Origin: Syntrophales bacterium
Lineage (GTDB): Bacteria > Desulfobacterota > Syntrophia > Syntrophales > UBA2210
Assembly: GCA_963666365.2 (NCBI GenBank)
Contig: CAXXNF010000002.1
Coordinates: 1 to 64,000, forward strand
Length of the DNA: 64,000 nucleotides
Direction: 5' to 3'
Shown: one piece after another, positions 1 to 33,000 of the stretch
Layout: each line of letters begins with the position of its first letter
Position numbering within the stretch: the first letter of the stretch is position 1
Notes under the pieces: model-generated
The model's input: the letters and a program-made list of their open reading frames with translations, nothing else
Database searches by the model: none
Told to the model about the DNA's origin: nothing
Made by a program: the position numbers and the translations under genes

Positions 1-3000
1 ACACCAGCACATCATTAAATAATGTCAGCTACCTGGAAGTGGGCGGTCATGTGAATAGTGCCTTCGCCGGCGTGGGGAGCATCGGCTTCGCACTCACCGG
101 CGTGGACTTCGGCATCCTCATGGTGGGGGACACGAAGGGCACCGCAGTGACCACCGACGACGTGAACTACATGGCGTTGAAGGCCGATGTGGCGAGCGCC
201 GGTCTCGTAGGGATCGACGGCCTCACCGCTGAAGTGACCACCCTCTCCGTAGAGGTGAACAAGACGAGCAGCCTCACGGCCCCGAACAGCGTCCTCGACT
301 TCGTGAACAGCGACGAGACGATCAACACCACCGACACCAACGCGGCCAGCGTGACCATCGCCACGGGCCCCGACACGGCCGACGTGGTGCTTGACATCGA
401 CGGCGACGAGGGGGTGCTGCTGGCGGTCATGACGAACCTGACCCTGGACGTCTTCGGCTTTGTCAGCCTCGACGGGAGCCTGGCCTTCAAGAAGGCCACA
501 GGGAGCTTCACCGTCACCGACGCCTCGACGCACACCTCCACCGCCCTGACCAATGTCAGCTACCTGGAAGTGGGCGGTCATGTGAATAGTGCCTTCGCCG
601 GCGTGGGGAGCATCGGCTTCGCACTCACCGGCGTGGACTTCGGCATCCTTATGGTGGGGGACACCAAGGGCACCGCAGTGACCACCGACGACGTGAACTA
701 CATGGCGTTGAAGGCGGACGTGGCGAGCGCCGGTCTCGTAGGGATCGACGGCCTGACCGCATCAGTAAATACTTTATCCGTAGAGGTGAACAAGACGAGC
801 AGCCTCACGGCCCCGAACAGCGTCCTCGACTTCGTGAACAGCGACGAGACGATCAACACCACCGACACCAACGCGGCCAGCGTGACCATCGCCACGGGCC
901 CCGACACGGCCGACGTGGTGCTTGACATCGACGGCGACGAGGGGGTGCTGCTGGCGGTCATGACGAACCTGACCCTGGACGTCTTCGGCTTTGTCAGCCT
1001 CGACGGGAGCCTGGCCTTCAAGAAGGCCACGGGAAGCTTCACCGTCACCGACGCATCGACGCACACCTCCACCGCCCTGACCAACGTCAGCTACCTCGAA
1101 GTGGGCGGTCATGTGAATAGTGCCTTCGCCGGCGTGGGGAGCATCGGCTTCGCACTCACCGGCGTGGACTTCGGCATCCTTATGGTGGGGGACACCAAGG
1201 GCACCGCAGTGACCACCGACGACGTGAACTACATGGCGTTGAAGGCCGATGTGGCGAGCGCCGGTCTCGTAGGGATCGACGGCCTGACCGCATCAGTAAA
1301 TACTTTATCCGTAGAGGTGAACAAGACGAGCAGCCTCACGGCCCCGAACAGCGTCCTCGACTTCGTGAACAGCGACGAGACGATCAACACCACCGACACC
1401 ACCGCGGCCAGCGTGACCATCGCCACGGGTCCCGACACGGCCGACGTGGTGCTTGACATCGACGGCGACGAGGGGGTGCTGCTGGCGGTCATGACGAACC
1501 TGACCCTGGACGTCTTCGGCTTTGTCAGCCTTGACGGGAGCCTCGCCTTCAAGAAGGCCACAGGGAGCTTCACCGTCACCGACGCCTCGACGCACACCAG
1601 CACATCATTAAATAATGTCAGCTACCTGGAAGTGGGCGGTCATGTGAATAGTGCCTTCGCCGGCGTGGGGAGCATCGGCTTCGCACTCACCGGCGTGGAC
1701 TTCGGCATCCTCATGGTGGGGGACACCAAGGGCACCGCAGTGACCACCGACGACGTGAACTACATGGCGTTGAAGGCGGACGTGGCGAGCGCCGGTCTCG
1801 TAGGGATCGACGGCCTCACCGCTGAAGTAAATACTTTATCCGTAGAGGTGAACAAGACGAGCAGCCTCACGGCCCCGAACAGCGTCCTCGACTTCGTGAA
1901 CAGCGACGAGACGATCAACACCACCGACACCACCGCGGCCAGCGTGACCATCGCCACGGGCCCCGACACGGCCGACGTGGTGCTTGACATCGACGGCGAC
2001 GAGGGGGTGCTGCTGGCGGTCATGACGAACCTGACCCTGGACGTCTTCGGCTTTGTCAGCCTCGACGGGAGCCTGGCCTTCAAGAAGGCCACAGGGAGCT
2101 TCACCGTCACCGACGCCTCGACGCACACCTCCACCGCCCTGACCAACGTCAGCTACCTCGAAGTGGGCGGTCATGTGAATAGTGCCTTCGCCGGCGTGGG
2201 GAGCATCGGCTTCGCACTCACCGGCGTGGACTTCGGCATCCTTATGGTGGGGGACACCAAGGGCACCGCAGTGACCACCGACGACGTGAACTACATGGCG
2301 TTGAAGGCCGATGTGGCGAGCGCCGGTCTCGTAGGGATCGACGGCCTGACCGCTGAAGTAAATACTTTATCCGTAGAGGTGAACAAGACGAGCAGCCTCA
2401 CGGCCCCGAACAGCGTCCTCGACTTCGTGAACAGCGACGAGACGATCAACACCACCGACACCAACGCGGCCAGCGTGACCATCGCCACGGGCCCCGACAC
2501 GGCCGATGTGGTGCTTGACATCGACGGCGACGAGGGGGTGCTGCTGGCGGTCATGACGAACCTGACCCTGGACGTCTTCGGCTTTGTCAGCCTCGACGGG
2601 AGCCTGGCCTTCAAGAAGGCCACGGGAAGCTTCACCGTCACCGACGCCTCGACGCACACCTCCACCGCCCTGACCAATGTCAGCTACCTGGAAGTGGGCG
2701 GTCATGTGAATAGTGCCTTCGCCGGCGTGGGGAGCATCGGCTTCGCACTCACCGGCGTGGACTTCGGCATCCTCATGGTGGGGGACACCAAGGGCACCGC
2801 AGTGACCACCGACGACGTGAACTACATGGCGTTGAAGGCGGACGTGGCGAGCGCCGGTCTCGTAGGGATCGACGGCCTCACCGCATGAAGTAAATACTTT
2901 ATCCGTAGAGGTGAACAAGACGAGCAGCCTCACGGCCCCGAACAGCGTCCTCGACTTCGTGAACAGCGACGAGACGATCAACACCACCGACACCACCGCG

Positions 3001-6000
3001 GCCAGCGTGACCATCGCCACGGGCCCCGACACGGCCGACGTGGTGCTTGACATCGACGGCGACGAGGGGGTGCTGCTGGCGGTCATGACGAACCTGACCC
3101 TGGACGTCTTCGGCTTTCGTCAGCCTCGACGGGAGCCTCGCCTTCAAGAAGGCCACAGGGAAGCTTCACCGTCACCGACGCATCGACGCACACCAGCACA
3201 TCATTAAATAATGTCAGCTACCTGGAAGTGGGCGGTCATGTGAATAGTGCCTTCGCCGGCGTGGGGAGCATCGGCTTCGCACTCACCGGCGTGGACTTCG
3301 GCATCCTCATGGTGGGGGACACCAAGGGCACCGCAGTGACCACCGACGACGTGAACTACATGGCGTTGAAGGCCGATGTGGCGAGCGCCGGTCTCGTAGG
3401 GATCGACGGCCTGACCGCTGAAGTAAATACTTTATCCGTAGAGGTGAACAAGACGAGCAGCCTCACGGCCCCGAACAGCGTCCTCGACTTCGTGAACAGC
3501 GACGAGACGATCAACACCACCGACACCACCGCGGCCAGCGTGACCATCGCCACGGGCCCCGACACGGCCGATGTGGTGCTTGACATCGACGGCGACGAGG
3601 GGGTGCTGCTGGCGGTCATGACGAACCTGACCCTGGACGTCTTCGGCTTTGTCAGCCTCGACGGGAGCCTCGCCTTCAAGAAGGCCACAGGGAGCTTCAC
3701 CGTCACCGACGCCTCGACGCACACCTCCACCGCCCTGACCAATGTCAGCTACCTGGAAGTGGGCGGTCATGTGAATAGTGCCTTCGCCGGCGTGGGGAGC
3801 ATCGGCTTCGCACTCACCGGCGTGGACTTCGGCATCCTCATGGTGGGGGACACGAAGGGCACCGCAGTGACCACCGACGACGTGAACTACATGGCGTTGA
3901 AGGCGGACGTGGCGAGCGCCGGTCTCGTAGGGATCGACGGCCTGACCGCTGAAGTAAATACTTTATCCGTAGAGGTGAACAAGACGAGCAGCCTCACGGC
4001 CCCGAACACCGTCCTCGACTTCGTGAACAGCGACGAGACGATCAACACCACCGACACCAACGCGGCCAGCGTGACCATCGCCACGGGTCCCGACACGGCC
4101 GACGTGGTGCTTGACATCGACGGCGACGAGGGGGTGCTGCTGGCGGTCATGACGAACCTGACCCTGGACGTCTTCGGTTTCGTCAGCCTTGACGGGAGCC
4201 TCGCCTTCAAGAAGGCCACGGGAAGCTTCACCGTCACCGACGCATCGACGCACACCAGCACATCATTAAATAATGTCAGCTACCTGGAAGTGGGCGGTCA
4301 TGTGAATAGTGCCTTCGCCGGCGTGGGGAGCATCGGCTTCGCACTCACCGGCGTGGACTTCGGCATCCTCATGGTGGGGGACACGAAGGGCACCGCAGTG
4401 ACCACCGACGACGTGAACTACATGGCGTTGAAGGCCGATGTGGCGAGCGCCGGTCTCGTAGGGATCGACGGCCTCACCGCTGAAGTAAATACTTTATCCG
4501 TAGAGGTGAACAAGACGAGCAGCCTCACGGCCCCGAACACCGTCCTCGACTTCGTGAACAGCGACGAGACGATCAACACCACCGACACCACCGCGGCCAG
4601 CGTGACCATCGCCACGGGCCCCGACACGGCCGACGTGGTGCTTGACATCGACGGCGACGAGGGGGTGCTGCTGGCGGTCATGACGAACCTGACCCTGGAC
4701 GTCTTCGGCTTTGTCAGCCTCGACGGGAGCCTGGCCTTCAAGAAGGCCACAGGGAGCTTCACCGTCACCGACGCCTCGACGCACACCAGCACATCATTAA
4801 ATAATGTCAGCTACCTGGAAGTGGGCGGTCATGTGAATAGTGCCTTCGCCGGCGTGGGGAGCATCGGCTTCGCACTCACCGGCGTGGACTTCGGCATCCT
4901 CATGGTGGGGGACACCAAGGGCACCGCAGTGACCACCGACGACGTGAACTACATGGCGTTGAAGGCCGATGTGGCGAGCGCCGGTCTCGTAGGGATCGAC
5001 GGCCTCACCGCATCAGTAAATACTTTATCCGTAGAGGTGAACAAGACGAGCAGCCTCACGGCCCCGAACACCGTCCTCGACTTCGTGAACAGCGACGAGA
5101 CGATCAACACCACCGACACCAACGCGGCCAGCGTGACCATCGCCACGGGCCCCGACACGGCCGACGTGGTGCTTGACATCGACGGCGACGAGGGGGTGCT
5201 GCTGGCGGTCATGACGAACCTGACCCTGGACGTCTTCGGCTTTGTCAGCCTTGACGGGAGCCTCGCCTTCAAGAAGGCCACAGGGAGCTTCACCGTCACC
5301 GACGCCTCGACGCACACCTCCACCGCCCTGACCAATGTCAGCTACCTGGAAGTGGGCGGTCATGTGAATAGTGCCTTCGCCGGCGTGGGGAGCATCGGCT
5401 TCGCACTCACCGGCGTGGACTTCGGCATCCTCATGGTGGGGGACACCAAGGGCACCGCAGTGACCACCGACGACGTGAACTACATGGCGTTGAAGGCCGA
5501 TGTGGCGAGCGCCGGTCTCGTAGGGATCGACGGCCTGACCGCTGAAGTGACCACCCTCTCCGTAGAGGTGAACAAGACGAGCAGCCTCACGGCCCCGAAC
5601 AGCGTCCTCGACTTCGTGAACAGCGACGAGACGATCAACACCACCGACACCAACGCGGCCAGCGTGACCATCGCCACGGGCCCCGACACGGCCGACGTGG
5701 TGCTTGACATCGACGGCGACGAGGGGGTGCTGCTGGCGGTCATGACGAACCTGACCCTGGACGTCTTCGGTTTCGTCAGCCTCGACGGGAGCCTCGCCTT
5801 CAAGAAGGCCACAGGGAGCTTCACCGTCACCGACGCCTCGACGCACACCTCCACCGCCCTGACCAATGTCAGCTACCTGGAAGTGGGCGGTCATGTGAAT
5901 AGTGCCTTCGCCGGCGTGGGGAGCATCGGCTTCGCACTCACCGGCGTGGACTTCGGCATCCTCATGGTGGGGGACACCAAGGGCACCGCAGTGACCACCG

Positions 6001-9000
6001 ACGACGTGAACTACATGGCGTTGAAGGCCGATGTGGCGAGCGCCGGTCTCGTAGGGATCGACGGCCTGACCGCTGAAGTAAATACTTTATCCGTAGAGGT
6101 GAACAAGACGAGCAGCCTCACGGCCCCGAACACCGTCCTCGACTTCGTGAACAGCGACGAGACGATCAACACCACCGACACCAACGCGGCCAGCGTGACC
6201 ATCGCCACGGGCCCCGACACGGCCGACGTGGTGCTTGACATCGACGGCGACGAGGGGGTGCTGCTGGCGGTCATGACGAACCTGACCCTGGACGTCTTCG
6301 GTTTCGTCAGCCTCGACGGGAGCCTCGCCTTCAAGAAGGCCACGGGAAGCTTCACCGTCACCGACGCCTCGACGCACACCTCCACCGCCCTGACCAATGT
6401 CAGCTACCTGGAAGTGGGCGGTCATGTGAATAGTGCCTTCGCCGGCGTGGGGAGCATCGGCTTCGCACTCACCGGCGTGGACTTCGGCATCCTCATGGTG
6501 GGGGACACCAAGGGCACCGCAGTGACCACCGACGACGTGAACTACATGGCGTTGAAGGCCGATGTGGCGAGCGCCGGTCTCGTAGGGATCGACGGCCTGA
6601 CCGCATCAGTAAATACTTTATCCGTAGAGGTGAACAAGACGAGCAGCCTCACGGCCCCGAACACCGTCCTCGACTTCGTGAACAGCGACGAGACGATCAA
6701 CACCACCGACACCAACGCGGCCAGCGTGACCATCGCCACGGGCCCCGACACGGCCGATGTGGTGCTTGACATCGACGGCGACGAGGGGGTGCTGCTGGCG
6801 GTCATGACGAACCTGACCCTGGACGTCTTCGGCTTTGTCAGCCTCGACGGGAGCCTCGCCTTCAAGAAGGCCACGGGAAGCTTCACCGTCACCGACGCCT
6901 CGACGCACACCTCCACCGCCCTGACCAATGTCAGCTACCTGGAAGTGGGCGGTCATGTGAATAGTGCCTTCGCCGGCGTGGGGAGCATCGGCTTCGCACT
7001 CACCGGCGTGGACTTCGGCATCCTCATGGTGGGGGACACCAAGGGCACCGCAGTGACCACCGACGACGTGAACTACATGGCGTTGAAGGCGGACGTGGCG
7101 AGCGCCGGTCTCGTAGGGATCGACGGCCTCACCGCTGAAGTAAATACTTTATCCGTAGAGGTGAACAAGACGAGCAGCCTCACGGCCCCGAACAGCGTCC
7201 TCGACTTCGTGAACAGCGACGAGACGATCAACACCACCGACACCAACGCGGCCAGCGTGACCATCGCCACGGGCCCCGACACGGCCGACGTGGTGCTTGA
7301 CATCGACGGCGACGAGGGGGTGCTGCTGGCGGTCATGACGAACCTGACCCTGGACGTCTTCGGTTTCGTCAGCCTCGACGGGAGCCTCGCCTTCAAGAAG
7401 GCCACGGGAAGCTTCACCGTCACCGACGCATCGACGCACACCTCCACCGCCCTGACCAACGTCAGCTACCTGGAAGTGGGCGGTCATGTGAATAGTGCCT
7501 TCGCCGGCGTGGGGAGCATCGGCTTCGCACTCACCGGCGTGGACTTCGGCATCCTTATGGTGGGGGACACCAAGGGCACCGCAGTGACCACCGACGACGT
7601 GAACTACATGGCGTTGAAGGCGGACGTGGCGAGCGCCGGTCTCGTAGGGATCGACGGCCTGACCGCTGAAGTAAATACTTTATCCGTAGAGGTGAACAAG
7701 ACGAGCAGCCTCACGGCCCCGAACACCGTCCTCGACTTCGTGAACAGCGACGAGACGATCAACACCACCGACACCAACGCGGCCAGCGTGACCATCGCCA
7801 CGGGTCCCGACACGGCCGACGTGGTGCTTGACATCGACGGCGACGAGGGGGTGCTGCTGGCGGTCATGACGAACCTGACCCTGGACGTCTTCGGTTTCGT
7901 CAGCCTTGACGGGAGCCTCGCCTTCAAGAAGGCCACGGGAAGCTTCACCGTCACCGACGCATCGACGCACACCAGCACATCATTAAATAATGTCAGCTAC
8001 CTGGAAGTGGGCGGTCATGTGAATAGTGCCTTCGCCGGCGTGGGGAGCATCGGCTTCGCACTCACCGGCGTGGACTTCGGCATCCTCATGGTGGGGGACA
8101 CCAAGGGCACCGCAGTGACCACCGACGACGTGAACTACATGGCGTTGAAGGCGGACGTGGCGAGCGCCGGTCTCGTAGGGATCGACGGCCTCACCGCTGA
8201 AGTAAATACTTTATCCGTAGAGGTGAACAAGACGAGCAGCCTCACGGCCCCGAACAGCGTCCTCGACTTCGTGAACAGCGACGAGACGATCAACACCACC
8301 GACACCACCGCGGCCAGCGTGACCATCGCCACGGGCCCCGACACGGCCGACGTGGTGCTTGACATCGACGGCGACGAGGGGGTGCTGCTGGCGGTCATGA
8401 CGAACCTGACCCTGGACGTCTTCGGCTTTGTCAGCCTCGACGGGAGCCTGGCCTTCAAGAAGGCCACAGGGAGCTTCACCGTCACCGACGCCTCGACGCA
8501 CACCTCCACCGCCCTGACCAACGTCAGCTACCTCGAAGTGGGCGGTCATGTGAATAGTGCCTTCGCCGGCGTGGGGAGCATCGGCTTCGCACTCACCGGC
8601 GTGGACTTCGGCATCCTTATGGTGGGGGACACCAAGGGCACCGCAGTGACCACCGACGACGTGAACTACATGGCGTTGAAGGCCGATGTGGCGAGCGCCG
8701 GTCTCGTAGGGATCGACGGCCTGACCGCTGAAGTAAATACTTTATCCGTAGAGGTGAACAAGACGAGCAGCCTCACGGCCCCGAACAGCGTCCTCGACTT
8801 CGTGAACAGCGACGAGACGATCAACACCACCGACACCAACGCGGCCAGCGTGACCATCGCCACGGGCCCCGACACGGCCGATGTGGTGCTTGACATCGAC
8901 GGCGACGAGGGGGTGCTGCTGGCGGTCATGACGAACCTGACCCTGGACGTCTTCGGCTTTGTCAGCCTCGACGGGAGCCTGGCCTTCAAGAAGGCCACGG

Positions 9001-12000
9001 GAAGCTTCACCGTCACCGACGCCTCGACGCACACCTCCACCGCCCTGACCAATGTCAGCTACCTGGAAGTGGGCGGTCATGTGAATAGTGCCTTCGCCGG
9101 CGTGGGGAGCATCGGCTTCGCACTCACCGGCGTGGACTTCGGCATCCTTATGGTGGGGGACACCAAGGGCACCGCAGTGACCACCGACGACGTGAACTAC
9201 ATGGCGTTGAAGGCCGATGTGGCGAGCGCCGGTCTCGTAGGGATCGACGGCCTGACCGCATCAGTAAATACTTTATCCGTAGAGGTGAACAAGACGAGCA
9301 GCCTCACGGCCCCGAACAGCGTCCTCGACTTCGTGAACAGCGACGAGACGATCAACACCACCGACACCACCGCGGCCAGCGTGACCATCGCCACGGGCCC
9401 CGACACGGCCGATGTGGTGCTTGACATCGACGGCGACGAGGGGGTGCTGCTGGCGGTCATGACGAACCTGACCCTGGACGTCTTCGGCTTTGTCAGCCTC
9501 GACGGGAGCCTCGCCTTCAAGAAGGCCACAGGGAGCTTCACCGTCACCGACGCCTCGACGCACACCAGCACATCATTAAATAATGTCAGCTACCTGGAAG
9601 TGGGCGGTCATGTGAATAGTGCCTTCGCCGGCGTGGGGAGCATCGGCTTCGCACTCACCGGCGTGGACTTCGGCATCCTCATGGTGGGGGACACGAAGGG
9701 CACCGCAGTGACCACCGACGACGTGAACTACATGGCGTTGAAGGCGGACGTGGCGAGCGCCGGTCTCGTAGGGATCGACGGCCTCACCGCTGAAGTAAAT
9801 ACTTTATCCGTAGAGGTGAACAAGACGAGCAGCCTCACGGCCCCGAACAGCGTCCTCGACTTCGTGAACAGCGACGAGACGATCAACACCACCGACACCA
9901 CCGCGGCCAGCGTGACCATCGCCACGGGTCCCGACACGGCCGACGTGGTGCTTGACATCGACGGCGACGAGGGGGTGCTGCTGGCGGTCATGACGAACCT
10001 GACCCTGGACGTCTTCGGCTTTGTCAGCCTTGACGGGAGCCTCGCCTTCAAGAAGGCCACAGGGAGCTTCACCGTCACCGACGCCTCGACGCACACCTCC
10101 ACCGCCCTGACCAATGTCAGCTACCTGGAAGTGGGCGGTCATGTGAATAGTGCCTTCGCCGGCGTGGGGAGCATCGGCTTCGCACTCACCGGCGTGGACT
10201 TCGGCATCCTTATGGTGGGGGACACCAAGGGCACCGCAGTGACCACCGACGACGTGAACTACATGGCGTTGAAGGCCGATGTGGCGAGCGCCGGTCTCGT
10301 AGGGATCGACGGCCTCACCGCATCAGTAAATACTTTATCCGTAGAGGTGAACAAGACGAGCAGCCTCACGGCCCCGAACAGCGTCCTCGACTTCGTGAAC
10401 AGCGACGAGACGATCAACACCACCGACACCACCGCGGCCAGCGTGACCATCGCCACGGGCCCCGACACGGCCGACGTGGTGCTTGACATCGACGGCGACG
10501 AGGGGGTGCTGCTGGCGGTCATGACGAACCTGACCCTGGACGTCTTCGGCTTTGTCAGCCTCGACGGGAGCCTCGCCTTCAAGAAGGCCACAGGGAGCTT
10601 CACCGTCACCGACGCCTCGACGCACACCTCCACCGCCCTGACCAACGTCAGCTACCTCGAAGTGGGCGGTCATGTGAATAGTGCCTTCGCCGGCGTGGGG
10701 AGCATCGGCTTCGCACTCACCGGCGTGGACTTCGGCATCCTCATGGTGGGGGACACGAAGGGCACCGCAGTGACCACCGACGACGTGAACTACATGGCGT
10801 TGAAGGCCGATGTGGCGAGCGCCGGTCTCGTAGGGATCGACGGCCTCACCGCTGAAGTGACCACCCTCTCCGTAGAGGTGAACAAGACGAGCAGCCTCAC
10901 GGCCCCGAACAGCGTCCTCGACTTCGTGAACAGCGACGAGACGATCAACACCACCGACACCAACGCGGCCAGCGTGACCATCGCCACGGGCCCCGACACG
11001 GCCGATGTGGTGCTTGACATCGACGGCGACGAGGGGGTGCTGCTGGCGGTCATGACGAACCTGACCCTGGACGTCTTCGGCTTTGTCAGCCTCGACGGGA
11101 GCCTGGCCTTCAAGAAGGCCACAGGGAGCTTCACCGTCACCGACGCCTCGACGCACACCTCCACCGCTGACCAATGTCAGCTACCTGGAAGTGGGCGGTC
11201 ATGTGAATAGTGCCTTCGCCGGCGTGGGGAGCATCGGCTTCGCACTCACCGGCGTGGACTTCGGCATCCTTATGGTGGGGGACACCAAGGGCACCGCAGT
11301 GACCACCGACGACGTGAACTACATGGCGTTGAAGGCGGACGTGGCGAGCGCCGGTCTCGTAGGGATCGACGGCCTGACCGCATCAGTAAATACTTTATCC
11401 GTAGAGGTGAACAAGACGAGCAGCCTCACGGCCCCGAACAGCGTCCTCGACTTCGTGAACAGCGACGAGACGATCAACACCACCGACACCAACGCGGCCA
11501 GCGTGACCATCGCCACGGGCCCCGACACGGCCGACGTGGTGCTTGACATCGACGGCGACGAGGGGGGTGCTGCTGGCGGTCATGACGAACCTGACCCTGG
11601 ACGTCTTCGGCTTTGTCAGCCTCGACGGGAGCCTGGCCTTCAAGAAGGCCACGGGAAGCTTCACCGTCACCGACGCATCGACGCACACCTCCACCGCCCT
11701 GACCAATGTCAGCTACCTGGAAGTGGGCGGTCATGTGAATAGTGCCTTCGCCGGCGTGGGGAGCATCGGCTTCGCACTCACCGGCGTGGACTTCGGCATC
11801 CTCATGGTGGGGGACACCAAGGGCACCGCAGTGACCACCGACGACGTGAACTACATGGCGTTGAAGGCCGATGTGGCGAGCGCCGGTCTCGTAGGGATCG
11901 ACGGCCTCACCGCTGAAGTAAATACTTTATCCGTAGAGGTGAACAAGACGAGCAGCCTCACGGCCCCGAACACCGTCCTCGACTTCGTGAACAGCGACGA

Positions 12001-21000: not shown

Positions 21001-24000
21001 CGGACTCGTACTGAGCGGCACCCTTGAGTTGCGCAAGAATAATACGGGATTCACCAAGGATCTGGGCGGTGGGTATGTGGTCAATGAGGTGCTCAACATA
21101 CCCGACCCGGACAATCCCGGAACCACCATAGCGGTGGAAGTGAAATTCAAGGAGAATGTCGATCTTGCCCTCGCCGGCACGGTGATTTTTGCCATTGTCG
21201 ACACCGACAGCGGGAATGAATACCTTTCGCTCAAGGGAGGCTTTGCCTTCTCAAAATCCACTTCCGCTGACGGCACGGTCACAAAAATAAAGGTGGGAGC
21301 TGCCGGCGTGGAGACCTTTATTGGTGCAGGGCCGGCAAAAATACTTGACGAAAACACTGCCGACCCCGACGACATGATTATCAATCCCGATGCCATGGGT
21401 GTGTTCATCGAAGATGTGACAATCGGCGTGGTCTTGATAAAGAAGGCGGCGACCGCAAACACGCCGGCGAGTTCTTCCTATGCCATCGACGGCAGCGGTG
21501 CAGCCTCTCTGCTGGGGATAGAAAACCTTTCTCTGAGCGGTTCACTCTCAGTGCGGGTCAACAAGACGAACGCCCCGGTCGACGAGCACGTGACCGTGCC
21601 GCTGCCTGAAGGCGGAACGGAAGACGTCCATATTCTTTTCAAAACCGCCTCGTCCGATCCCGTGATAGCGGGAACGCTCGATCTCGATGTAGCCGGGGTG
21701 GTCACCCTTTCCGGCGGGTTCTCCTTCACGAAACATGTAGAAGGAACCGCCCCCGATATCACTACGAAAATATCCATAGGAATTGCCAATGTCACGGCAT
21801 TTGTGGGTGTGGATGCGGGGACACCGGATGCACTGGGCGTTCAGGCGACCATCGATAAACTTGGTCTGATATTATACAAAACCCAAGCGGGAACGTCCTA
21901 CGCACTCAACGGATCGGGAGGTGTTGCGCTGCTGGGCCTGGAGGGCCTTGATGTGGAGGGGAATGTCGCTGTCCAGATCAACAATTCCGGGAGGGTGGTC
22001 AACGAGGCCTTTGATGTTCCCAATCCGGACTTTGACCAGGATCAGCCGATAAGCGAGAGCAATCCGGAAACAATTCATGTAACGGTATCCTTTGCCACGC
22101 CGGCGGAACTAACCGCCTTTAAAGGCGAATTGACCTTAAAAGTGTTAGATGTCTTCACTCTTACCGGCACGGTGAGCTTCCGCAAGTCGGCCACGGGCAA
22201 GGTACAGATCGATATTCCTAATGCAAGTCTGATCGTCACGATGGATGGCACCGAGGTAGTGGGGGTGACCGGACATGCAAAATTCAGCATCGGAAACCCG
22301 GACGGCTTCAAGTTACAGGATCTGTCGATAGATGGATTTTCCATCTTCGGCGTCAATGCGGGACTCGATCCGGCAACGCCGGTGGCGAATCTGCCCAGTG
22401 CCGATCTTGTCTACCCGGTTGACGGCGGTGCGGTCAATCAGACCGAGCTGTTTGCGCGAAAATACATCGACGTGACCTTCAATGATCCGAATGGGGTCGG
22501 CCTTAACGAGGCTACCATTATTTCAGATCAATTGCCGGAAATCGCCCTCACCGGACCCAACGGCGCCGCCATTCCGGTCAGTAACGATCCCCAGAAAGTC
22601 GGGTACAACACCTATCGCTACACGCTGACGGTATCGGACATTACGAAACTTACTCTTGGGGACTGGCAAGTTGAAATAAAGGCGTTGAGTTTTGCCGATA
22701 ACAACGGCAATCGCAATATCGCTGAAATCGAGACCTTCACGATCCGCGACGGACCCAAGCCCACGGCAAACCTTGCGAATCCCACTACAGGCGCGCAGGT
22801 CGATCTGATGCTGCTCAACGCCCGTAAATTTATCGATGTCACCTTTGCCACCTATGATGGCGCTACTCTTGATACTTCCTCTATCAATGGGAACGAGTTC
22901 ACCCTGATCGGGACGGGGGTAAAAGATGCGGGTCTCTCGGGAGCGATAAGCGGGACTCCACAGCTGCTCTACGGCACGACGTACCGCTATACGCTGATCG
23001 ACACCTTGCCCAATAACGGCATCGATCTGTTCGGCGCGGGCACCGTTCAGGTGCAGTTCGTCGCCAATTCCTGGCAGGATTCGGCAGGCAATAAGAACAA
23101 TGCCGAGACGGAGACCTTCACCGTAGTGGCTGCCACGGCGGGCACACGTTCAACCACCACCGGTATGTCCATCGGACCCCTGTCGCTGGCGGGGCCGACA
23201 CTGGGCGTGACCTCTATAGGCTTCAAGGATATGAAGCTGGTACTGACCATCGGCATCGGCGTGGAAACGGCCTCGCTGAACTTCGGTTCGTCAAACGGCC
23301 AGCAGTCAAGCCAGCAGCAGTCCAGCGGCATCAGCACCACCCTGACCGGTCTTCTGGGCACCTTCGACCTGACCGTGGACGTCCTCGGATTTCTCCAGGG
23401 GAGTGGGTCTGTCGGCCTGACCGGGAAGTGGGGAGTGAGCATCAGTTCCTTTGTCCTGACCGTGCCGGATGTGGTAGTGGCCACGGCTCAGGGTATCAAG
23501 TTCGGCTACGATCCGTCCTACAAGGCGGAAGATCATCCCGATCCGGACAAACCGGGTAAATTCCTGCCTCAGACAATCTTGAGCATTGACAGGGCGTCGA
23601 TTTCCTTCCCGAAACTGCAGCTCGCCGGATGGATCGAGCCCTTCGATCCCGATGGTTCCGGACCCGAGAAGTCCATCCCCGGCCTCACCGTCTTTGACGA
23701 CGGTTTCCGCTTCGGCACGGCGGTAGTGGCCTACGGTATGAGTTCCGCGCCCGGTACGGGAGTGAGCCAGGGGACCAACACCACTCCCGGCGCTACTGAC
23801 GGCGCGGCCATAAAACTGGGCAGCATCCTGGAGTTCGACGACATCCGTGTGGGGGTAAGCAATTTCGAGGTCCATTTCGGCGAGGCCGTTAATTTCGACG
23901 GAGAGATCTTCATCGCCTCCGGCGGTGCCAAGTTCTTCAAGGATAAGCCGGTCAATGCGGTGATATCGGACCGTGCATCGGGCATGAGTTGTGGTAGAGA

Positions 24001-27000
24001 CGGAATTCTTGGGACGGCTGATGATGTCAACGAAGCAACCGACACCGAGGCCCTGCGCGCCACCCTGGAATTCGCGAATGGCGAGGTCAAGGGGTTCCGC
24101 TTCCTGGTGGATACCTTCCGCATTGAAATGGGCGCCTTCCTGGCCATCAAGGGTGTCGATTTCTATATCAACACCGATCCCGAAGAAGGAAATCCTGTAG
24201 TGAGTTTCACCTCGCTCGGTGCGGAACTTAAGGTTGCCTCGCTCAAGCTGACGGGAGAGGCGCGCAACTTCGCCTTCCTGAAAGACGGCTCCTTCCAGGC
24301 CAACAGCGGGTTCGGCGTATTCTTCGGAGTGGAATCGGCCACCGGCGGCAGCGTGGGCTGGCCGAGTTGGATGCCGATCAAAATAAAGGAAATCGGTATT
24401 CAGTGGCACGATATAAACAACGATCCTCTCCGCTTCGTCTTGACCCTGTCGGCGACGGTGGAGTCCATCGAAGGGATTCCCGGCGCCCAGTTCTCCGGCA
24501 CCATCGATGGGGTGAAGATCGATCTCGGCCTGCTCTTTGAAGGAAAATTCCCGATTACCGACATAGCATCGATCGGAGTGAGCATCGAGGCCGATGCCTT
24601 CGGCGGAAAGATAAGCGCCGCACTGGTAGGAGGTATCCTCAAGATCGACGATAACAACCAGATGATTACGGCCCTGTCCCCGGCCGACACGCATGTGAAG
24701 GACCGAATCTTTTTCATGGGGATTCAGGGTGGCTTCGAGATGATGGGTGCGGGAGGATTCACGATCCGCTTTGCCCTTTCAGAGCTGGGGCCCCTCGGCG
24801 TGCAGATCGAGGCAAGCCTGCCTCCCCCGGGGATCATTCTGGAGCCGAACAGCGGCCTGGCGATCAATGATTTTGTGGGGGGCGTGGAATTTTTCAGTAC
24901 CCTTCCCGATGTGTCAAAACCGAAGGAGTTGAGGGATCCGCGGTTTAATGTGACCGCCGACTCTATCGATGCCGGCATGTGGCTGGATCAGATCAAACTT
25001 CAGGTGGTCAACCAGTACATCGCCATCCAGGCGAACCCCAACAGGTCGGGATTCGCCGCGGCCTTTACCGCCCCTATGGTCATTACGGGAAGTGCGAAAA
25101 TCTATACCGCCTATGCGTCGCAGTATGTCTTCAATGGCCAGGTGGGGATGAAGATCAGCACCGACGGCAAGATCCTCATCATGGGGAAGATCAATTTTGC
25201 CAATGATATGCTCAGCGTCAGCGCCAAACTCTACGCCAATCTTTCGAAAATTGCCGACGGCCAGGCAAAGATTCTGTTCCTCTTCGATGCGCCCGATCAG
25301 ATCGAACTGCTGACCGTGGGTGGGAAGATGGAAATGCTCTTCAGCAGCGGTGACGAGGATGTGGAGTATGACTTCACCGATCCTCTGACCGCACCGATGG
25401 CGGTTCTGTCCTCGCCGGGCAACGGCGAGACCGTCTTCCGGGAGGATCTGAACACCAACGGTTATTTCGATCTGGCCTTCCTGCCCTCCGACGGCGCCGA
25501 CTTCGCCGACGGCACGATCCTCGATCCCCTGTACATCACCCTGGGCGGCGATGGGGCTGCCGGTGTGACGATCGACCGTGTGGAGGAAATCGAAGGCGGG
25601 ATATACCGGTATTATTATAATGATGACGGCGATGAATTGGGGCTCGGCGAGGTATCCCTGGATATCGCGGCCGGCAGTTTCGCCGATACTCTCGGCATTG
25701 TCAATGATGCCGAAACTTTGAGCTTTACCGTCAGGGATCTTACGGGTGCGTTGTCCGGACCGGAGGATGGCGGCAGCATCGATGTCTCGGTGCTCAATGC
25801 CAACAAGTACCTTTCCGTCCGCTACAGTCCCAGCCCCGGATGGGAGCTGGATGAGGCCACCGTCAACGACAGCGATACGGTCTGTATCCTGACCTTCGGG
25901 GACGGAAGCACGCTGAACGTTTCGGGGCCGGGCACACTGGTGGACGGCGCCTATCGATATATGTTGTCCGATGATTTCGAGTTTGAACCCGGCGAAGTGA
26001 CCGTGGCGTTCGCAGCCGGAACCTGGGCGGATACCGGAGGCAGGGCCAATGCCGCCAGCGTCGACACCTTCCTGGTCACCGGACCCACCGCCGGCGTCAT
26101 CGACCCGCTGGCAGGGAGCCGTATCGATGCCGCCGCCATAAACGGTCTGGGCTATATCGAAGTCCGGTTTACGCCGACAACGGGCAGTGCAGTCGTGGAG
26201 ACGTCCATTACCGGATGGAGCGATGTCTTTATGACTATTGAACAGAGCGACGGATCCACGCTCGAGATCCGCGGACCTCCGACGGAGAAGGTGTCCGATA
26301 CCGTCTTCCGCTATGCCCTGCCGGAAGGTTTCCTCTTTGTTACCGGAGAGGTGTCCGTCACGTTCGCTGCCGGTACCTTCTCCGATGACGCCGGATATGC
26401 CAACGTATCTCAGACCCAGACCTTCACCGTCATCGGGCCCATCGCCAATGCGGCCGTGGCCGACAGCGACGGTAATTATTCCACCATCAACGGTACCATA
26501 GTCGGCCTTTCCACACTGAACGGGCGCGGCTATCTGGATGTGCGCTTCCGGAGCACCACCGGCAATACGCTGGTCGCATCCACCATTACCGACGGCACTG
26601 CCGAATTCACGCTGAGCGGTGCCGGTGCGGCCGGAGTGACAATCATCAATGATGAAGGCGAAGTCCAGGATCTCGGCGAAGGCGTCTTCCGCTACTTCTT
26701 CACCGGACAATTCGTTGACGGCGAGGTGACCATTACTTACGGGGCAGGCGCCTGGGAAGATTCTGCCGGGTACACCAACCTCGAATCCACGGAAACCTTT
26801 GTGCTGAAATCGCCCACGGCGACGCTGACCGATCCCGCAGAGAAGGGGACCGCCGACCGGGCCACGATGGACGATCGGGGCTACGTCCTGGTCACCTTCA
26901 ACGATCTGACCGGACTGGGCCTTGATGAGACGACCATCCTGGATGACGATCCCGAATTCGGCTTCAACGGCGCCGCCGCCGCCGGGGTGGTATTGACCGG

Positions 27001-30000
27001 CGTGGTCGAGAAGGCGGAGGGAAACGACAGCACCTACAAATATTTCTTCAGCGGCAGCTTCGCCGAAGGCCTGGTGGATGTGACGTTCATTGCCGGCAGT
27101 TACGCCGATGCGGAAGGCAACACCAACGGCGCCGCAACCGAGCAGTTCCGCATCATCGATCAGGCCATTTCCATCCGGTTCATCATGGAAGGGTTCGAGG
27201 AGCTTAACGCGGGCGGCTTCACTCCCGACTACGACGGCGACGGCGTACCCGATCCGCTGATAGCACTCGAAGGCCGGATCGAACTGAGCATCGATATTAT
27301 CCGTGATCCCGCTACCGATGAAATTCAGAAGGCGCGCTTCCTGCTGGATGTAAGCGCCACGCTGAAGCTCTTTTACCTCGGCAACATCGGTTCCGCCGCG
27401 GGTCGTTTCGTACTTTCCATCGGTGAGACACCCGATGACGAAAACAGCGCCTCTTCCATCTTCGGCACGAACAAGCTCCAATTCTGGGGAGTGCTGAAAC
27501 TTCAGACCAACCTTGAAAAACTGCGCGAAATCGGCATCGAAGCGGATGCGGAAGTTTTGCTGCAGATCAATGCCACCAGTGAAGAAAAGACGGAAGTCAT
27601 CTTCCTTGAGGGGATAAAGGGCGATGTCCTCTTTGAGGTAACGGATTCCGGCACGGTCAATCAAGTTGTTACCGATCTGCAGCCGGTGGGTATTGATCCC
27701 GGCAGCTTCCTGTCCACGCTTCCCGAGTCGGTACGGAGTGCCTTCAGTGCCAACGCCGTCGAATTTTCCGACACCTCGACCTTCAGCGTCCAGGGGGTGG
27801 AAACTGGCACGCGCTGGAAGATCTACGTCAACGACGGTGATGTGCAGCGCCAGTACTTCATCGACAAGAAAAACACCGATACCGGCTCAAAGATGGTCTT
27901 TTACGGCGAGGCCCAGACCTTTGTCCTCGAGCCCTATACCTTCGCGCTTTCCATTGCCGGAGCTTTGAAATTCAAGATTCCGCCCATCCAGGAAGACTCC
28001 GAAGAACTGTTCCGCATGAGCGGCGTCTTTCACATGCAGATCAGCACCTCCCGGGCCGAGATGTTTGCCAAGGCGGACCTGACCCTGGGGCCGGAGAGCG
28101 CGCCGATCCTTGAGTTTGACGCCCTGGGACTGATGATTATCAACTTCGAAGATCCGGGATTTGCCGGACGCATCAACCTCTCCATTAAAACCGGCGGACC
28201 GCTGGAAGGTATCCTGGACTTTGAAGCGGCCTTTGATCTGTACATCAATGCGACGATCAGCGGCAGCGCGCAGGAATTTCGCGTACCCGATATGTTCCTC
28301 AATCCGGAAAAGGGATATCTGGATCAGAAATTCATCGACAGCCTGGAATTCGGAACGGGGGACCAGCTCTTCAGTACAACCGATACGGATGGTTCGATCA
28401 AGACGTCCTTGAATGAAAGCACCAACGATGACGGAGATACGGTCGCCGGCAGCGTGCCTGCGTCGCTGCGGGGGGCCTTTGACGCCAACGGTACACCCCT
28501 CGGGGATACCGTGTCGGTGCGCATGATCTTCAAGGACAGCCGCTGGGAGCTTGACGACGGCACCAACAGATATGTGGTCGAGACAAGCGCCGGCAACGCC
28601 GCCCAGATCATCGTATATGAAGCGGAAACAACCGCTACCGGTGACGGGGCCTATGTGTCGATCCCCCGCGGCCCGCCCCAGCTTGACAAGACGCTTGGTT
28701 CCGCCGGACCCTATGTGGTGATTCAGGGGGCCGGCATTCTGTCCATCGCCGACATGTTCGTAATGAAGGGCGCCTTCCGTTTCGAACTGAGCCTGGACAA
28801 GCTGGAGCTGCAGATCAGCGCCACCATGCGCCTCGGCGACGAGAGTGATCCGCTCTTCTTTTTCCAGGTGATCGGTTATCTGAATATCGATTGGGATGCC
28901 GGGGTGGTAGGGTATCTTTCCCTCGAAGCAAGTACCGGCGGCATACTCAAGGAAGCAGGATTCGATGTAGAGGCTGACTTTAAACTGGAGATCAACTCCA
29001 CCGGGCAGGATCACGAGGCCCTGATTCTGCTGGCGCCCGGAGAGACGACCACCGTCACCATTCCTGCAAACACCTACCGCATCAGCATCAGCGGTCACTT
29101 CATCTTCAGCCCCGGCGATACGGAACTGTTCCGCCTTACCGGTGTGTTCTTCCTGGAGATCAGCGCCGATGAGGGTCTCACCATTTTTGCCGATGTCAGC
29201 CTGCTGATCGGTCCCCCCGATGCACGCATCTTCACCTTCGGGGCCATGGGACTGCTGGTATTCAAGCCTGACGGAAACATGGGTATCCGCCTGCAGCTTT
29301 CCGGCGATGTGTCCCTCGGCGATGTGCTTGAGTTCGATTGCCAGTTCGAGTTCATCATGAACACCTCGGGAGACACCGACTATGTCTTCGAGGTGCCCGA
29401 ACAGTTCAGGGACGAGGTGGATTACGATACCGTAACCATCCCCATGGCTCCGCCCAAGCCAGACGGCAGTGCGGGAGACACGCCGGAACCCTACACGGTG
29501 ATCAAGGGCGATGGCAGTCTGAGCCTCCTGGGCGGCATACTGGAACTGGACGGCTTCTTCTACTTCAAGATCAGTGCTTCCGGCATCCGGATCACCATCG
29601 CCGCCAGTGCCGAACTGCAGCCCCTCGGGGTGGTGGCGGTCAGCGGCGATCTGGACATCAGCGACGAAGGGCTGGTAGGAGGACTTGCCCTGGATGTGGG
29701 GGTAGGGCTCGGGACAGGAGTATTTTCCTTCAGTGGCTATTTCCGTCTCTGCATCAACACCACCAGTTCGGCGGCCACGATCTATCGCCTGGAGATCGAT
29801 CCGAACACCGGAGAGGTATCGGAAAATCTCATAGAAGACACCATAGAGGCCTCAACCCTGATTGTGGAAGGCGGCGGTAAGCTCGACATCAACGGGATGT
29901 TCGTCGTCGAAGGCGCCTTCTACCTGCTCCTCTGTGATGAGGGATTCGAGATTAGCTTCAATGCTTACATGGATCTGGGCGGCATGGCCCGGGCCGGGGT

Positions 30001-33000
30001 AAGGGGCGGTGCCGCGATTTACAAGGACGGCTCTCTGGTAATCGATCTGGCCCTGGAAGTCGATGCGATTTCGATTCCAATGGTAAATATCGAAGGCGAC
30101 TTCTACTTCCAGATCAACACCGGATCGGTTGAGCGACTGGGTGTGGCGCCCAACAGTTTCCTGATCCGCATATACGCCCAGGTCAGCATCCTGCTCTTCA
30201 CCGGCACCGGCGATCTGAGCATGTCCTACAAGGACGGTGTGTTCGAGATTGCCATCAATGAACTGTCGATCAATTTCTTCAATTTCATTCAGATTCATAT
30301 AGACGGGTATTTCCGGTCCAACGGGCAGTTCAGGATCCATGGGCTGGTGAGTTTTGAGATTCCCCTGGGTCCCTTCGTCCTCTACGGTGGTGTAGAAGTG
30401 ACGCTCAGCAACACCATGTTTGAAGGACGCATCTGGGGCGGGGTTGATTTCCGGATCAACTTCGGCCTTTTCAAAATCCGCTTCACCTTGGCGTCCATCG
30501 AGGCCTATCTGCAGATTACTCAGGTAAAGGCGACCGCCTCGCTTACCATTAAAGTGATGGGGATCAAGATTAAAGGTTCACTCACACTGACCTGGGGTGC
30601 CGCGCCGAAGCTGGCCACGCAGGTGGGCGATACTCTCTACCTCAATGTCGGCGATCGGGCTCAGTACAGAGGTCAGTACTATGATGAGGTGGCTGACGAA
30701 AGCTACCGCATCAGCCAGAACGGCGACAAGGTCAAAGTCAGTGCCATGGGCTACGATCAGGAATTTTCCGGCGTCAACAAGATCGTCGGGGATTTCGGAA
30801 GCGGGCCCGATTTCCTCTATGTAGATGAATCGGTGACCAAAACGGTGGAAATCCATGGCGGCGATGGTGACGACGTCCTTATTTACGCCGGCAGCGGTAC
30901 GGCAAAGCTCTATGGTGATGCGGGCATCGATCAGATTTACGGCGGCAGCGGCGTTAATTATCTTTACGGTGGTCTGGGCAACGACCAGATTGATGCCGGC
31001 GAGGGCGCCGCAACCATCTACGGCGACGCCGGCGACGACACCATCACGGGCGGAACCGGTGACGATACCATCTTCGGCGGTTCGGGCAACGATACGATTA
31101 AGGGCGGCGAAGGGGCCGACACGATCCACGGCGATGCCGGAAACGACGTCATCTATGGCGAGGACGGCGACGACATCATCTCCGGTGATGCGGGTGCGGA
31201 TCTGATTTACGGCGATGCCGGCGATGATACGATCCGCGGCGGCGACGACAACGACAGCATCTACGGCCGTGACGGCGATGATGTGCTTTACGGCGATGCG
31301 GGACTCGATACGATCTACGGCGAAGATGGCATCGACACGATTCGTGGCGGGACTGAAGACGACACGATTTACGGCGGCGCCGGCGATGATGAGATCTATG
31401 GCGAAGACGGGAACGACTGGATTCTCGGCGAGGCCGACAACGATACAATTTCCGGCGGCAACGGCGACGATGTCATCTACGGCGATTACGGGAGCGTTTC
31501 CGCCAAACAGGCCCAGACAGGAAGCGCCGAGGGCAGCGATACAATTAACGGCGATGCCGGGAACGATACCCTCTTCGGCGGCGGCGGCGACGACGATCTC
31601 TATGGTGTGAGCGGTCGCAATGTCCTCATCGGCGACTACGGCTCCGTGACCGGATTGATAGTGCTGAGCGGTTTGACTGCAGGGGGCAATGATTATATCA
31701 ATGCCGGTCTGAATGAAAGCGTTCTGATCGGCGGCCCGGGCAACGACGAACTCCAGGGCGGCCCGGTTTCCGATGTAATTGTCGGTGACAACGGAAGAGT
31801 CCAGCTCGGTATGGACCTGCTGACCACGTCGATCAAGAGCCTTACCGGGGTCAGCGGCGACGACAGTCTATACGGTGCGGGGGCGACCGATTATCTGATC
31901 GGCGGCGACGGTAACGATACAATAGAAGGAGGCGCCGCTGCCGATATCATATTAGGTGACAATGGCGAAATCGTTCCCGACTACACAAATATCGTTGTCT
32001 CGGTTACCACCACCGATGCGTCGGTGGGGGGGGGAGATACGCTTACAGGGGATGGAGGCGACGACCTGATCTGGGGACAGGCCGGCGGCGATACCCTGTA
32101 CGGCAATGACGGCAACGACATCCTCTTCGGTGACCGCGGAGTGGTGACCTTCAGTGCCGGCGTGGCGCTCAGGATAGAAACGCTCGATACCGCAAACGGC
32201 GGTAACGATACAATATACGGTGGTAATGGCAATGATGCGGCTTTTGGCGGGGCAGGCGCCGATACCCTCCAGGGAGAGAGCGGCAACGACATTATTCTCG
32301 GCGATCATGGCGTAGTGGTCCGGGCCGACGGATCGGCTGCCGCACAGGATGTCTATACCACCGACCCGACTACGGGCGGTGCCGATACAATCAGCGGAGG
32401 CGAGGGCAACAACATCGTAATCGGCGGTCCCGCCGGCGACACTCTTTCGACCGGTTCCGGCAGCGACATCGTTATCGGTGACAGCGGCTATGTGGTTCGC
32501 AATGCCGGCTCCGTGGCTGAAAGAATCTATGCATCTTATCTGCCCGGTACCGGCGATTACGATGCGGGAGGCAACGACACCATCACCATCGCCGGCGGAG
32601 CCAATAATGTCATCGGCGGTGTGGGTAACGATACCATTACCACCGGCACCGGTCTGGACGTGATCCTGGGCGACAACGGTACCATCGGTTTGGGAGATAC
32701 GGCGCTGGGCGACGAAAAATACAACGTCGTTACCTCCGATTACGCCAACGGCGGGACCGACACCATCAATGCGGGCGACGGAAACAATATCGTCCTCGGC
32801 GGCTCCTATAGTGATTCCATTACGACCGGCAACGGCTGGGATCTGATTCTCGGCGACAACGGAAAGGTGGTGCGCGGTTCCGACTATGTGCCCAGTGTGA
32901 TCGAGAGCCTTACCGGCGACATTTATGGCGGCAACGATGCGCTCATCGATGGCGGTGAAGGCGACGACACGATCATCGGTGGAAACGGTGACGATACCAT

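Follow-up and report, generated by a model that had tools for sequence, protein, structure and literature searches.

Giant secreted proteins are usually read as adhesins built like beads on a string. In RTX adhesins of the LapA, MpIBP and SiiE type, the extender arrays consist of immunoglobulin (Ig)-like beads of about 100 amino acids (aa). Bridge-like proteins such as TamB and Vps13 have a repeating-beta-groove unit made of five strands and a subsequent groove-crossing loop. A 2026 preprint predicts that the N-terminal 13,000 aa of Cag_663 from Chl. chlorochromatii form an extended beta-sheet, along which a hydrophobic cleft runs without interruption. The preprint also proposes that Cag_663 dimerises over the cleft, reports its transfer into the partner cell, places a sapC gene (Cag_662) before it, and mentions homologues in multicellular magnetotactic bacteria. 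Giant proteins of Omnitrophota are described in another preprint (bioRxiv 10.1101/2023.11.21.568195) as containing a hollow 'antiparallel beta-helix' and divergent SecA modules that lack the scaffold-wing. Here we analyse the first 64 kb (hereafter the window) of contig C2 from a Syntrophales bacterium whose 4.0-Mb genome is assembled in two contigs (C1 and C2) and is 94% complete. The window opens inside an array of near-identical 177-aa repeats. It contains the core of a single giant secreted protein, which is split over two contig ends and is at least 16,600 residues long, and here the string itself is predicted to be a continuous sheet with a fully hydrophobic face.

The array occupies positions 1..19633 on the plus strand as 37 near-identical units of 531 nucleotides (nt), or 177 aa, each. 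A sequence-only reading of the window, made without database searches, had proposed a 177-aa repeat, and the repeat is real: 37 copies follow each other at 531-nt spacing, with all of the strand motifs quoted there present in the translation. Start-to-start spacing is exactly 531 nt except at three places, where it is 534, 529 and 532 nt. Across the array, copies are 91–98% identical to the first one (77%, not counting gaps, for the single indel-bearing copy), and the 35 in-frame units have a mean identity of 96.6% at the nucleotide level and 97.8% at the amino-acid level. The array overruns the contig start and continues at C1:1-3877 (minus strand) with at least seven further copies. Since the same DNA appears at the end of the other contig, the assembly must have broken inside the array. 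The near-identical units therefore number at least 44 (7 on C1 and 37 in the window), plus any that lie in the contig gap. The giant gene starts with an ATG at C1:10792 and stops at window position 39178, so its length comes to no less than 10,792 + 39,178 nt (about 16,650 codons), to which any copies in the gap must be added. The position of the window start at a contig end inside the array, the continuation on C1, and the frame-breaking indels described below did not feature in the sequence-only reading.

AlphaFold2 modelled three canonical units (30-row alignment) with a mean predicted local distance difference test score (pLDDT) of 85.9 and a predicted template modelling score (pTM) of 0.82. 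A single unit (49-row alignment) gave a pLDDT of 86.7 and a pTM of 0.77, with strands as in the three-unit model. In each modelled unit, strands S1 to S6 lie at residues 8-24, 27-43, 54-69, 74-88, 139-150 and 154-173, and strand lengths are 12–24 residues. Strands 4 and 5 are separated by a 50-residue excursion that contains two or three short strands modelled at lower confidence. The boundary strand, at residues 178-201, begins in the apparent linker and continues into the unit that follows, which makes this 'linker' the tip of a long hairpin between strands 154-173 and 178-201.

We used mean-field direct-coupling analysis to examine covariation within and between units. The analysis drew on 1,539 units from 195 proteins, with a coupling set of 1,053 units having at most 15% gaps (effective number 947); it uses the kind of signal that AlphaFold also uses, but was computed separately. 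The highest-ranking couplings fall into five antiparallel ladders (S1-S2, S2-S3, S3-S4, S4-S5 and S5-S6). As the ladder series includes S4-S5, these two strands are neighbours and the excursion is a long insert at their hairpin. AlphaFold2 and covariation thus agree on a unit of six long antiparallel strands plus a flap of 36–50 residues. Strong couplings connect the flap with the lower ends of S3, S2 and S1, all within one unit, at column pairs 52-92 (z 15, the strongest), 40-90, 7-102 and 36-104 of the family hidden Markov model (HMM), and the sheet columns that it touches are mostly glycine or alanine. Across 787 adjacent unit pairs, S6 of one unit and S1 of the next form an antiparallel ladder with a mean coupling of 0.52 at the best register, compared to 0.14 and 0.02 when the S6 and S1 columns are compared within a unit. 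This difference supports a continuous sheet. The array is accordingly predicted, from models and couplings together, to be one uninterrupted meander sheet and not a row of Ig-like beads.

The predicted fold has no close counterpart among solved structures. In a VIA comparison, 48,161 chains were aligned to each model (one unit and three units) and the top 50 rows were considered. The nearest solved folds, open and curved sheets, were outer-membrane barrel walls, the TamB beta-taco and Lpt jellyrolls, all at background Z only (5–7). Among the single-unit matches, the TamB beta-taco ranked 2 of 48,161, and the top 50 also held Lpt jellyrolls, ATG2A and PRELID/Ups1 lipid carriers. For the three-unit model, TamB, Vps13 and RHS-shell structures were all missing from the top 50, which does not exclude them, and only outer-membrane barrels were matched, with Foldseek template modelling (TM) scores of 0.11–0.20. 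Foldseek with one unit gave nothing at E≤0.001, and every row listed had E>0.1. Ig or cadherin extenders appeared neither in the top 50 VIA rows of either model nor in the listed three-unit Foldseek rows; Ig-like modules, from receptor or zona-pellucida entries, turned up only in a few insignificant single-unit Foldseek rows (E 0.37–0.78). Structural look-alikes in the Atlas were unnamed clusters only.

Two candidate folds were set aside. A closed 18-strand barrel is made unlikely by a root-mean-square deviation of 18.5 Å to maltoporin and by the continuation of the sheet between units. An Ig-like extender of discrete beta-sandwiches was rejected on the absence of a Pfam match, the 12–24-residue strands in a meander that runs across unit boundaries, and the S6(n)-S1(n+1) ladder.

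The structural guess of the sequence-only reading is, at the level of models, largely supported. It had suggested that the units stack as one continuous meander and not as Ig sandwiches, and AlphaFold2, the S6(n)-S1(n+1) couplings and the structure comparisons all agree with this. The absence of an obvious inter-domain linker, which it had remarked upon, fits the modelled segment between units, the hairpin tip described above. Its proposal of a hydrophobic face also agrees with the predicted sheet, one side of which is lined with hydrophobic residues along the whole length of the strands. The discrete beta-sandwiches and the match to a described extender family that it had named as counter-evidence did not arise in the AlphaFold2 models, the listed three-unit Foldseek rows or Pfam. 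Its likening of the array to AsmA, TamB and Vps13 fares less evenly: the continuous meander and the hydrophobic face are supported by models and couplings, but there is no family match, each unit has six strands plus a flap, and weak covariation hints at a closed core.

The repeat has no entry in family libraries. Pfam searches with three units gave no real match (three sub-threshold rows, with no stretch passing alone); the only row at the cut-off was Prim-Pol, at 22.8 bits summed over three copies. NCBIfam returned nothing near any cut-off for the unit. Among PDB sequences the unit had no match, and a 12-unit profile gave one row with E 0.45. We found no Pfam match to Ig, Big or cadherin families on the units, and no Pfam or NCBIfam match to AsmA, TamB, YhdP or chorein families on three units or on 20 homologues. 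The same 20 homologues had no Pfam family over their repeats, the only passing stretches being DUF3737 in one protein and RTX in another. The statement of the sequence-only reading that the unit could not be assigned to a known family is therefore upheld by the Pfam, NCBIfam and PDB-sequence searches, and our literature search found no description of the repeat.

Homologues are nonetheless numerous. Among 1.84 billion cluster representatives, the unit profile matched 1,768 at E≤0.001 and 491 at E≤1e-30, with up to 34 tandem stretches per protein. Median unit spacing in the family is 166 aa (5–95% range 129–281; 694 spacings). The homologues come from Betaproteobacteria, Methylococcaceae, Zetaproteobacteria, Planctomycetota, Verrucomicrobiota, Chloroflexi, Arcobacter, Syntrophales, Chlorobium and Ca. 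Magnetoglobus multicellularis, and their source names are 'hypothetical', 'beta strand repeat-containing' and 'LEPR-XLL domain-containing'. By sequence comparison, this is a widespread repeat family without a Pfam, NCBIfam or solved-structure entry, and defining it would annotate thousands of giant proteins now called 'hypothetical' or 'beta strand repeat-containing'.

The arrangement of side chains in the sheet bears directly on what the array might do. In S1-S4 the hydrophobic alternation changes parity mid-strand, while S5 and S6 hold one parity throughout. S5 pairs with hydrophobic residues of S4 at an index sum of 201 below the parity switch and 200 above it, and S6 pairs with hydrophobic residues of S1 in the next unit at an index sum of 150 below the switch and 153 above it. 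The pattern is most simply read as beta-bulges aligned across S1-S4 at glycine/serine-rich positions, which would bring all the large hydrophobic residues onto a single face that runs the whole width of the sheet and continues through successive units. The sheet is thus predicted to have one side that is hydrophobic over the full strand length, with the flap on the opposite, polar, glycine/alanine-rich side. A hydrophobic face about 13–17 residues wide cannot sit in water, so the sheet must shield it by curling or folding, or else a second sheet or cargo must cover it.

Burial by cargo would make the array a bridge-like conduit, with lipids or other hydrophobic molecules sliding along an open groove to a partner cell or surface, as in TamB, YhdP, Vps13 or LptA. 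The face spans the full strand length and is continuous across units, as such a groove would require, and the single-unit structural neighbours noted above (the TamB beta-taco at rank 2 of 48,161, with Lpt jellyrolls, ATG2A and PRELID/Ups1 in the top 50) are of the fitting kind. Furthermore, the Cag_663 model has a continuous hydrophobic cleft, and that preprint reports transfer into the partner bacterium. The present repeat can be linked indirectly to that protein through a Chlorobiaceae locus found with the family member of a Chlorobium metagenome-assembled genome (MAG) as query. In this Chlorobiaceae MAG locus, a LEPR-XLL giant gene shares the repeat (38% identity over 474 residues, E 2e-77), and a SapC-family gene lies directly upstream of it (L029:9124-9888), the arrangement reported at Cag_663. 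Because a homologue of the repeat stands behind a SapC gene there, the repeat analysed here and the Cag_663 sheet probably belong to the same family. Against the conduit stand the lack of any AsmA, TamB or chorein family match and the architecture of the unit. Each unit has six strands, not the five strands plus crossing loop of the repeating beta-groove, and the long insert lies between the antiparallel strands S4 and S5 (ladder sum 200/201) and packs on the polar face. In addition, weak couplings between hydrophobic-face residues on distant strands suggest that two walls of the sheet touch, and an exposed groove of more than 100 nm would lie in water with no lipid source or sink shown. We consider the conduit unlikely, though it deserves to be kept in view.

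Burial by a second sheet would give a ribbon that pairs face to face with a copy of itself, or lies on a membrane or hydrophobic surface, forming a sheath, fibre or adhesive tape. The same hydrophobic face argues for this, as does the AlphaFold3 dimer model of Cag_663 in the preprint, in which two chains shelter their clefts. On the other hand, a few couplings join hydrophobic-face residues at least three strands apart within a unit (15-124, 28-124 and 28-144; intra-unit z 3–5) and, if real, point to closure within one chain; the AlphaFold2 monomer model is also confident without a partner (pTM 0.82). On balance a self-pairing or surface-binding ribbon seems rather unlikely. A complex prediction with two copies of a two-unit piece gave a score of 0.02 (mark 0.42) and says nothing either way. 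The weak couplings across the face hint at self-closure, with a closed core rather than an open channel.

The remainder of the giant protein gives the array its context. From the N-terminus, the order is a LEPR-XLL motif, about 11 diverged units, at least 44 near-identical units, five diverged units, a middle region of 2,900 aa and an RTX region of about 2,700 aa. The LEPR-XLL motif (NF012209, 28 bits against a cut-off of 17) covers residues 12-33 of the protein starting at C1:10792, which places the protein among LEPR-XLL giant proteins, a name that also occurs among the source names of its homologues. The N-terminal 2,350 residues hold the roughly 11 diverged units recognised by the family HMM, many of them only about 125 aa long with a short flap. 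Downstream of the array, five more diverged units of the family lie at 19664..22195 (plus strand; 22–37% identical to the canonical unit by the family HMM), two of which have a longer insert in the first hairpin loop. Next comes a non-repeat middle region of about 2,900 aa at 22196..30800 (plus strand), without a Pfam match and colinear with six homologous giant proteins at 38–77% identity. Since this stretch is colinear in six giant proteins, it is a conserved distal module and not more of the repeat; on 22196-30600 the family HMM gives only marginal partial matches (independent E 0.001–1, bit scores ≤6). The sequence-only reading had seen the array grade into about 3,000 aa of similar sequence, and this is correct for the five diverged units at 19664-22195 but not for 22196-30600, a different region with marginal HMM fragments. 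The C-terminal region, at 30800..39178 (plus strand, about 2,700 aa, including the stop codon), consists of RTX nonapeptides forming a calcium-binding beta-roll (PF00353, E 4.5e-75 and 1.3e-69, 12 stretches each). The GGxGxD nonapeptide calcium-binding blocks thus lie in the C-terminal part of the giant protein, as in RTX proteins, and 27-nt tandem repeats run through 31013-37116.

Three side observations concern the composition and assembly of this gene. Between the N-terminal short units and the canonical array, at C1 ~6076-4690 (minus strand; protein residues ~1573-2035), there are four or five repeats of another kind, each of about 100 aa, Thr/Ala-rich, closing with a 'VSGTRA'-like motif and lacking a family match. 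Within window positions 18001-32000, G+C content goes from about 0.63 in the array to 0.55–0.59 in the diverged units and the middle region, and up again in the RTX region. A 41.6-kb metagenome contig (L032) is 98–100% identical to the upstream operon and the start of the giant gene and also ends inside the units; the array therefore seems hard to assemble elsewhere too.

Our preferred interpretation, which we hold with about even confidence, is that the array is a stiff, length-setting ribbon, a spacer in a giant secreted protein. Each unit would add six long antiparallel strands to a single meander sheet. The sheet would curl or fold along the mid-strand bulge line and so bury its hydrophobic face, giving a taco-like, two-walled cross-section. 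Assuming standard sheet geometry of about 0.48 nm per strand, and so at most about 2.9 nm per unit, a ribbon of at least 44 units would grow by about 2–3 nm per unit and exceed 100 nm in total length, keeping the distal middle region and the calcium-folded RTX part at a distance from the cell. In favour of this interpretation are the near-identity of the units, the selection on the protein, the continuity of a linker-free sheet and the confident multi-unit model; the conserved distal module and the calcium-folding C-terminus add to it, and the argument as a whole follows the analogy of the extenders in RTX adhesins. Prediction supports the repeat and its family, the order of strands, the pairing between units, the place of the flap and the hydrophobic face, whereas we infer the curled cross-section, the stiffness, the function as a spacer and the route of export discussed below.

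Several observations weigh against the stiff ribbon. A fully hydrophobic face is also expected of a cargo groove or a pairing surface. The curled cross-section is inferred from composition, register shifts and a few weak couplings, and the excess of such couplings across the face is not significant: 6 of 209 hydrophobic-face pairs had z>2, compared to 5 of 948 other pairs (rank test, p 0.14). The phylogenetic distribution does not help: a search of 41 relatives (own genome counted) found the unit family in only 2, and among 301 genomes taken from across the phylum just 1, the own genome, had it at E 1e-10, so no co-occurrence with lifestyle can be read from it. Most of the genomes searched are fragmented, and repeats of this kind often go unassembled in them. 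Finally, five small indels in the window array mean that the giant gene as assembled is not one open frame.

These indels raise the alternative that the gene is decaying or mis-assembled, in which case the array DNA would be real but the protein no longer one chain, a pseudogene whose fold has no present function. Three +1-nt insertions in unit 6 (2885, 3118 and 3157; 2885..3157, plus strand) break and then restore the frame, while a 2-nt deletion near 11151-11166 and a 1-nt insertion in a G run at 11562 (11151..11562, plus strand) move the frame for the rest of the gene. All five fall within 19.6 kb of array, several more frame breaks lie close to the C1 contig end, and the assembly break itself falls inside the array, all of which would fit a decayed gene. 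However, 27.6 kb after 11543, beyond the last indel, is one open frame, and the operon upstream is intact. The units themselves carry the mark of selection. Among 34 in-frame canonical units, 21 codon sites vary synonymously only and 8 with an amino-acid change, and minority codons are synonymous in 24 cases and non-synonymous in 9, where random changes would give 25% synonymous; two broken units and the last, transitional one were left out of this count. The synonymous excess shows that the coding sequence is under purifying selection. Moreover, one indel lies in a G run and all of them are located where the gene is most difficult to polish, which fits consensus errors. Reads drawn from more than 40 near-identical copies would hide an indel confined to one unit, and the sequencing runs listed as containing this DNA included none of RNA. 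We therefore regard the array indels as more likely to be polishing errors than signs of decay, and a pseudogene as very unlikely.

Directly upstream of the giant-gene start, on the same (minus) strand of C1, lies a five-gene operon (C1 11257-19806). It encodes a TolC-like protein, a membrane-fusion adaptor of 291 aa, a protein combining GAF and adaptor domains, an M50-like membrane protein (HExxH) that carries a fused adaptor domain, and a SecA paralogue of 678 aa in which DEAD, preprotein-binding and P-loop domains are present and SecA_SW is absent. A canonical SecA with SecA_SW is encoded elsewhere in the genome. No HlyB-type ATP-binding cassette (ABC) transporter exceeds the TIGR01846 cut-off in the genome (94% complete), the best hit reaching 359 bits against 725.55 (C2:1.95 Mb). 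In place of the dedicated HlyB-type ABC transporter of an RTX type I system, the adjoining operon thus has a SecA-like ATPase, and the giant protein is probably exported through the TolC-like, two-adaptor, M50-like and SecA-like proteins and not through a classical ABC type I system.

The operon recurs in other genomes. In a genome from another family of the same order (G037), the five genes keep their order before a LEPR-XLL gene that bears the units. We surveyed 15 loci, comprising the G037 locus and 14 metagenome loci that carry near relatives of the SecA paralogue. Upstream sequence is available for 11 of these, and in each of them the M50/adaptor gene immediately precedes the SecA-like gene. 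Of the 12 with downstream sequence, 6 have as the next gene one that opens with an LE[PQE]R..LS motif, one of these loci being near-identical to the genome studied here; the other six have no such motif within 2.5 kb. Our literature search found no description of a SecA-like/M50/adaptor/TolC operon. The operon is thus a candidate undescribed export route, and its conservation beside LEPR-XLL genes makes that route directly testable.

Taking array and operon together, a bolder version can be proposed, in which the protein would be an extracellular counterpart of bridge-like lipid-transfer proteins. It would form a hydrophobic-lined beta-groove of more than 100 nm, exported N-terminus first by a hitherto undescribed envelope-spanning SecA-like/M50-adaptor/adaptors/TolC-like machine that recognises LEPR-XLL, and it would move hydrophobic material or make cell contact, as suggested for Cag_663. 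We judge this combination decidedly unlikely.

It should also be noted which other genes surround the locus. A second giant open frame of 7,299 aa (42102..63998, plus strand) overruns the window; it is a neighbour and not part of the repeat, and contains RTX, PA14, three proprotein-convertase P-domains, FG-GAP, MAM-like and LamG domains. The LEPR motif is absent at its start and in 39.1–42.4 kb. In the roughly 2.9 kb between the two giant frames (39179-42101), open frames at 39712-40443 and 41434-42084 have no Pfam or NCBIfam match, and an overlapping frame at 39705-40214 gives a faint RTX-like match (E 0.004). On C1, about 17 kb from the giant-gene start, an RHS-repeat/YD-shell protein with a Lcl C-terminal-like domain and DUF6531 is encoded at 27885-32000 (plus strand).

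Several known systems share part of this design. Like RTX adhesins, the protein is giant and secreted, with a C-terminal RTX region, a long run of near-identical tandem repeats and distal non-repeat modules, and a TolC-like protein and adaptor proteins are encoded nearby. Unlike the extenders of those adhesins, the 177-aa repeats are predicted to fuse into one sheet and have no Ig, cadherin or Big match. The protein also departs from LapA-type adhesins in having a LEPR-XLL N-terminus instead of a retention module and no HlyB-type ABC transporter over the cut-off in the genome.

AsmA-like and other repeating-beta-groove bridges (TamB, YhdP, Vps13, ATG2) and the Lpt jellyroll differ in other ways. 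The repeat does not belong to their sequence families, its units have six strands plus an external flap and are near-identical in tandem, and the protein would be secreted to the outside of the cell and carries calcium repeats, whereas those bridges are periplasmic or intracellular.

The giant proteins of Omnitrophota are alike in having a very long continuous antiparallel beta structure predicted by AlphaFold (bioRxiv 10.1101/2023.11.21.568195). In both cases a SecA DEAD/preprotein-binding module without scaffold-wing is linked to the giant gene and proposed as exporter. In the Omnitrophota proteins, as that preprint describes them, SecA is fused inside the giant protein, with many transmembrane helices and type II/IV-like neighbours. 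Here, compared by description only, a separate 678-aa SecA-like gene sits in an operon with TolC-like, adaptor and M50 genes.

For this kind of object there is one close precedent, the Cag_663 preprint, and none in domain or structure databases. Cag_663, as described there, is likewise a giant secreted protein with a long, continuous predicted sheet that has a hydrophobic surface and no solved-structure match, and our family search, too, returned a Ca. Magnetoglobus protein and Chlorobium MAG proteins. The two proteins differ in the rest of the chain, as the HK97-like protrusions and the 14,000-aa parallel beta-helix C-terminus described for Cag_663 are replaced here by RTX and a different middle region. 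They differ also in their neighbours: the genome studied here has no SapC match and has the SecA-like operon instead. The question raised by the Chlorochromatium giant proteins can be addressed with the 177-aa unit, which is compact and expressible and would allow a rod, a groove and a pairing surface to be told apart.

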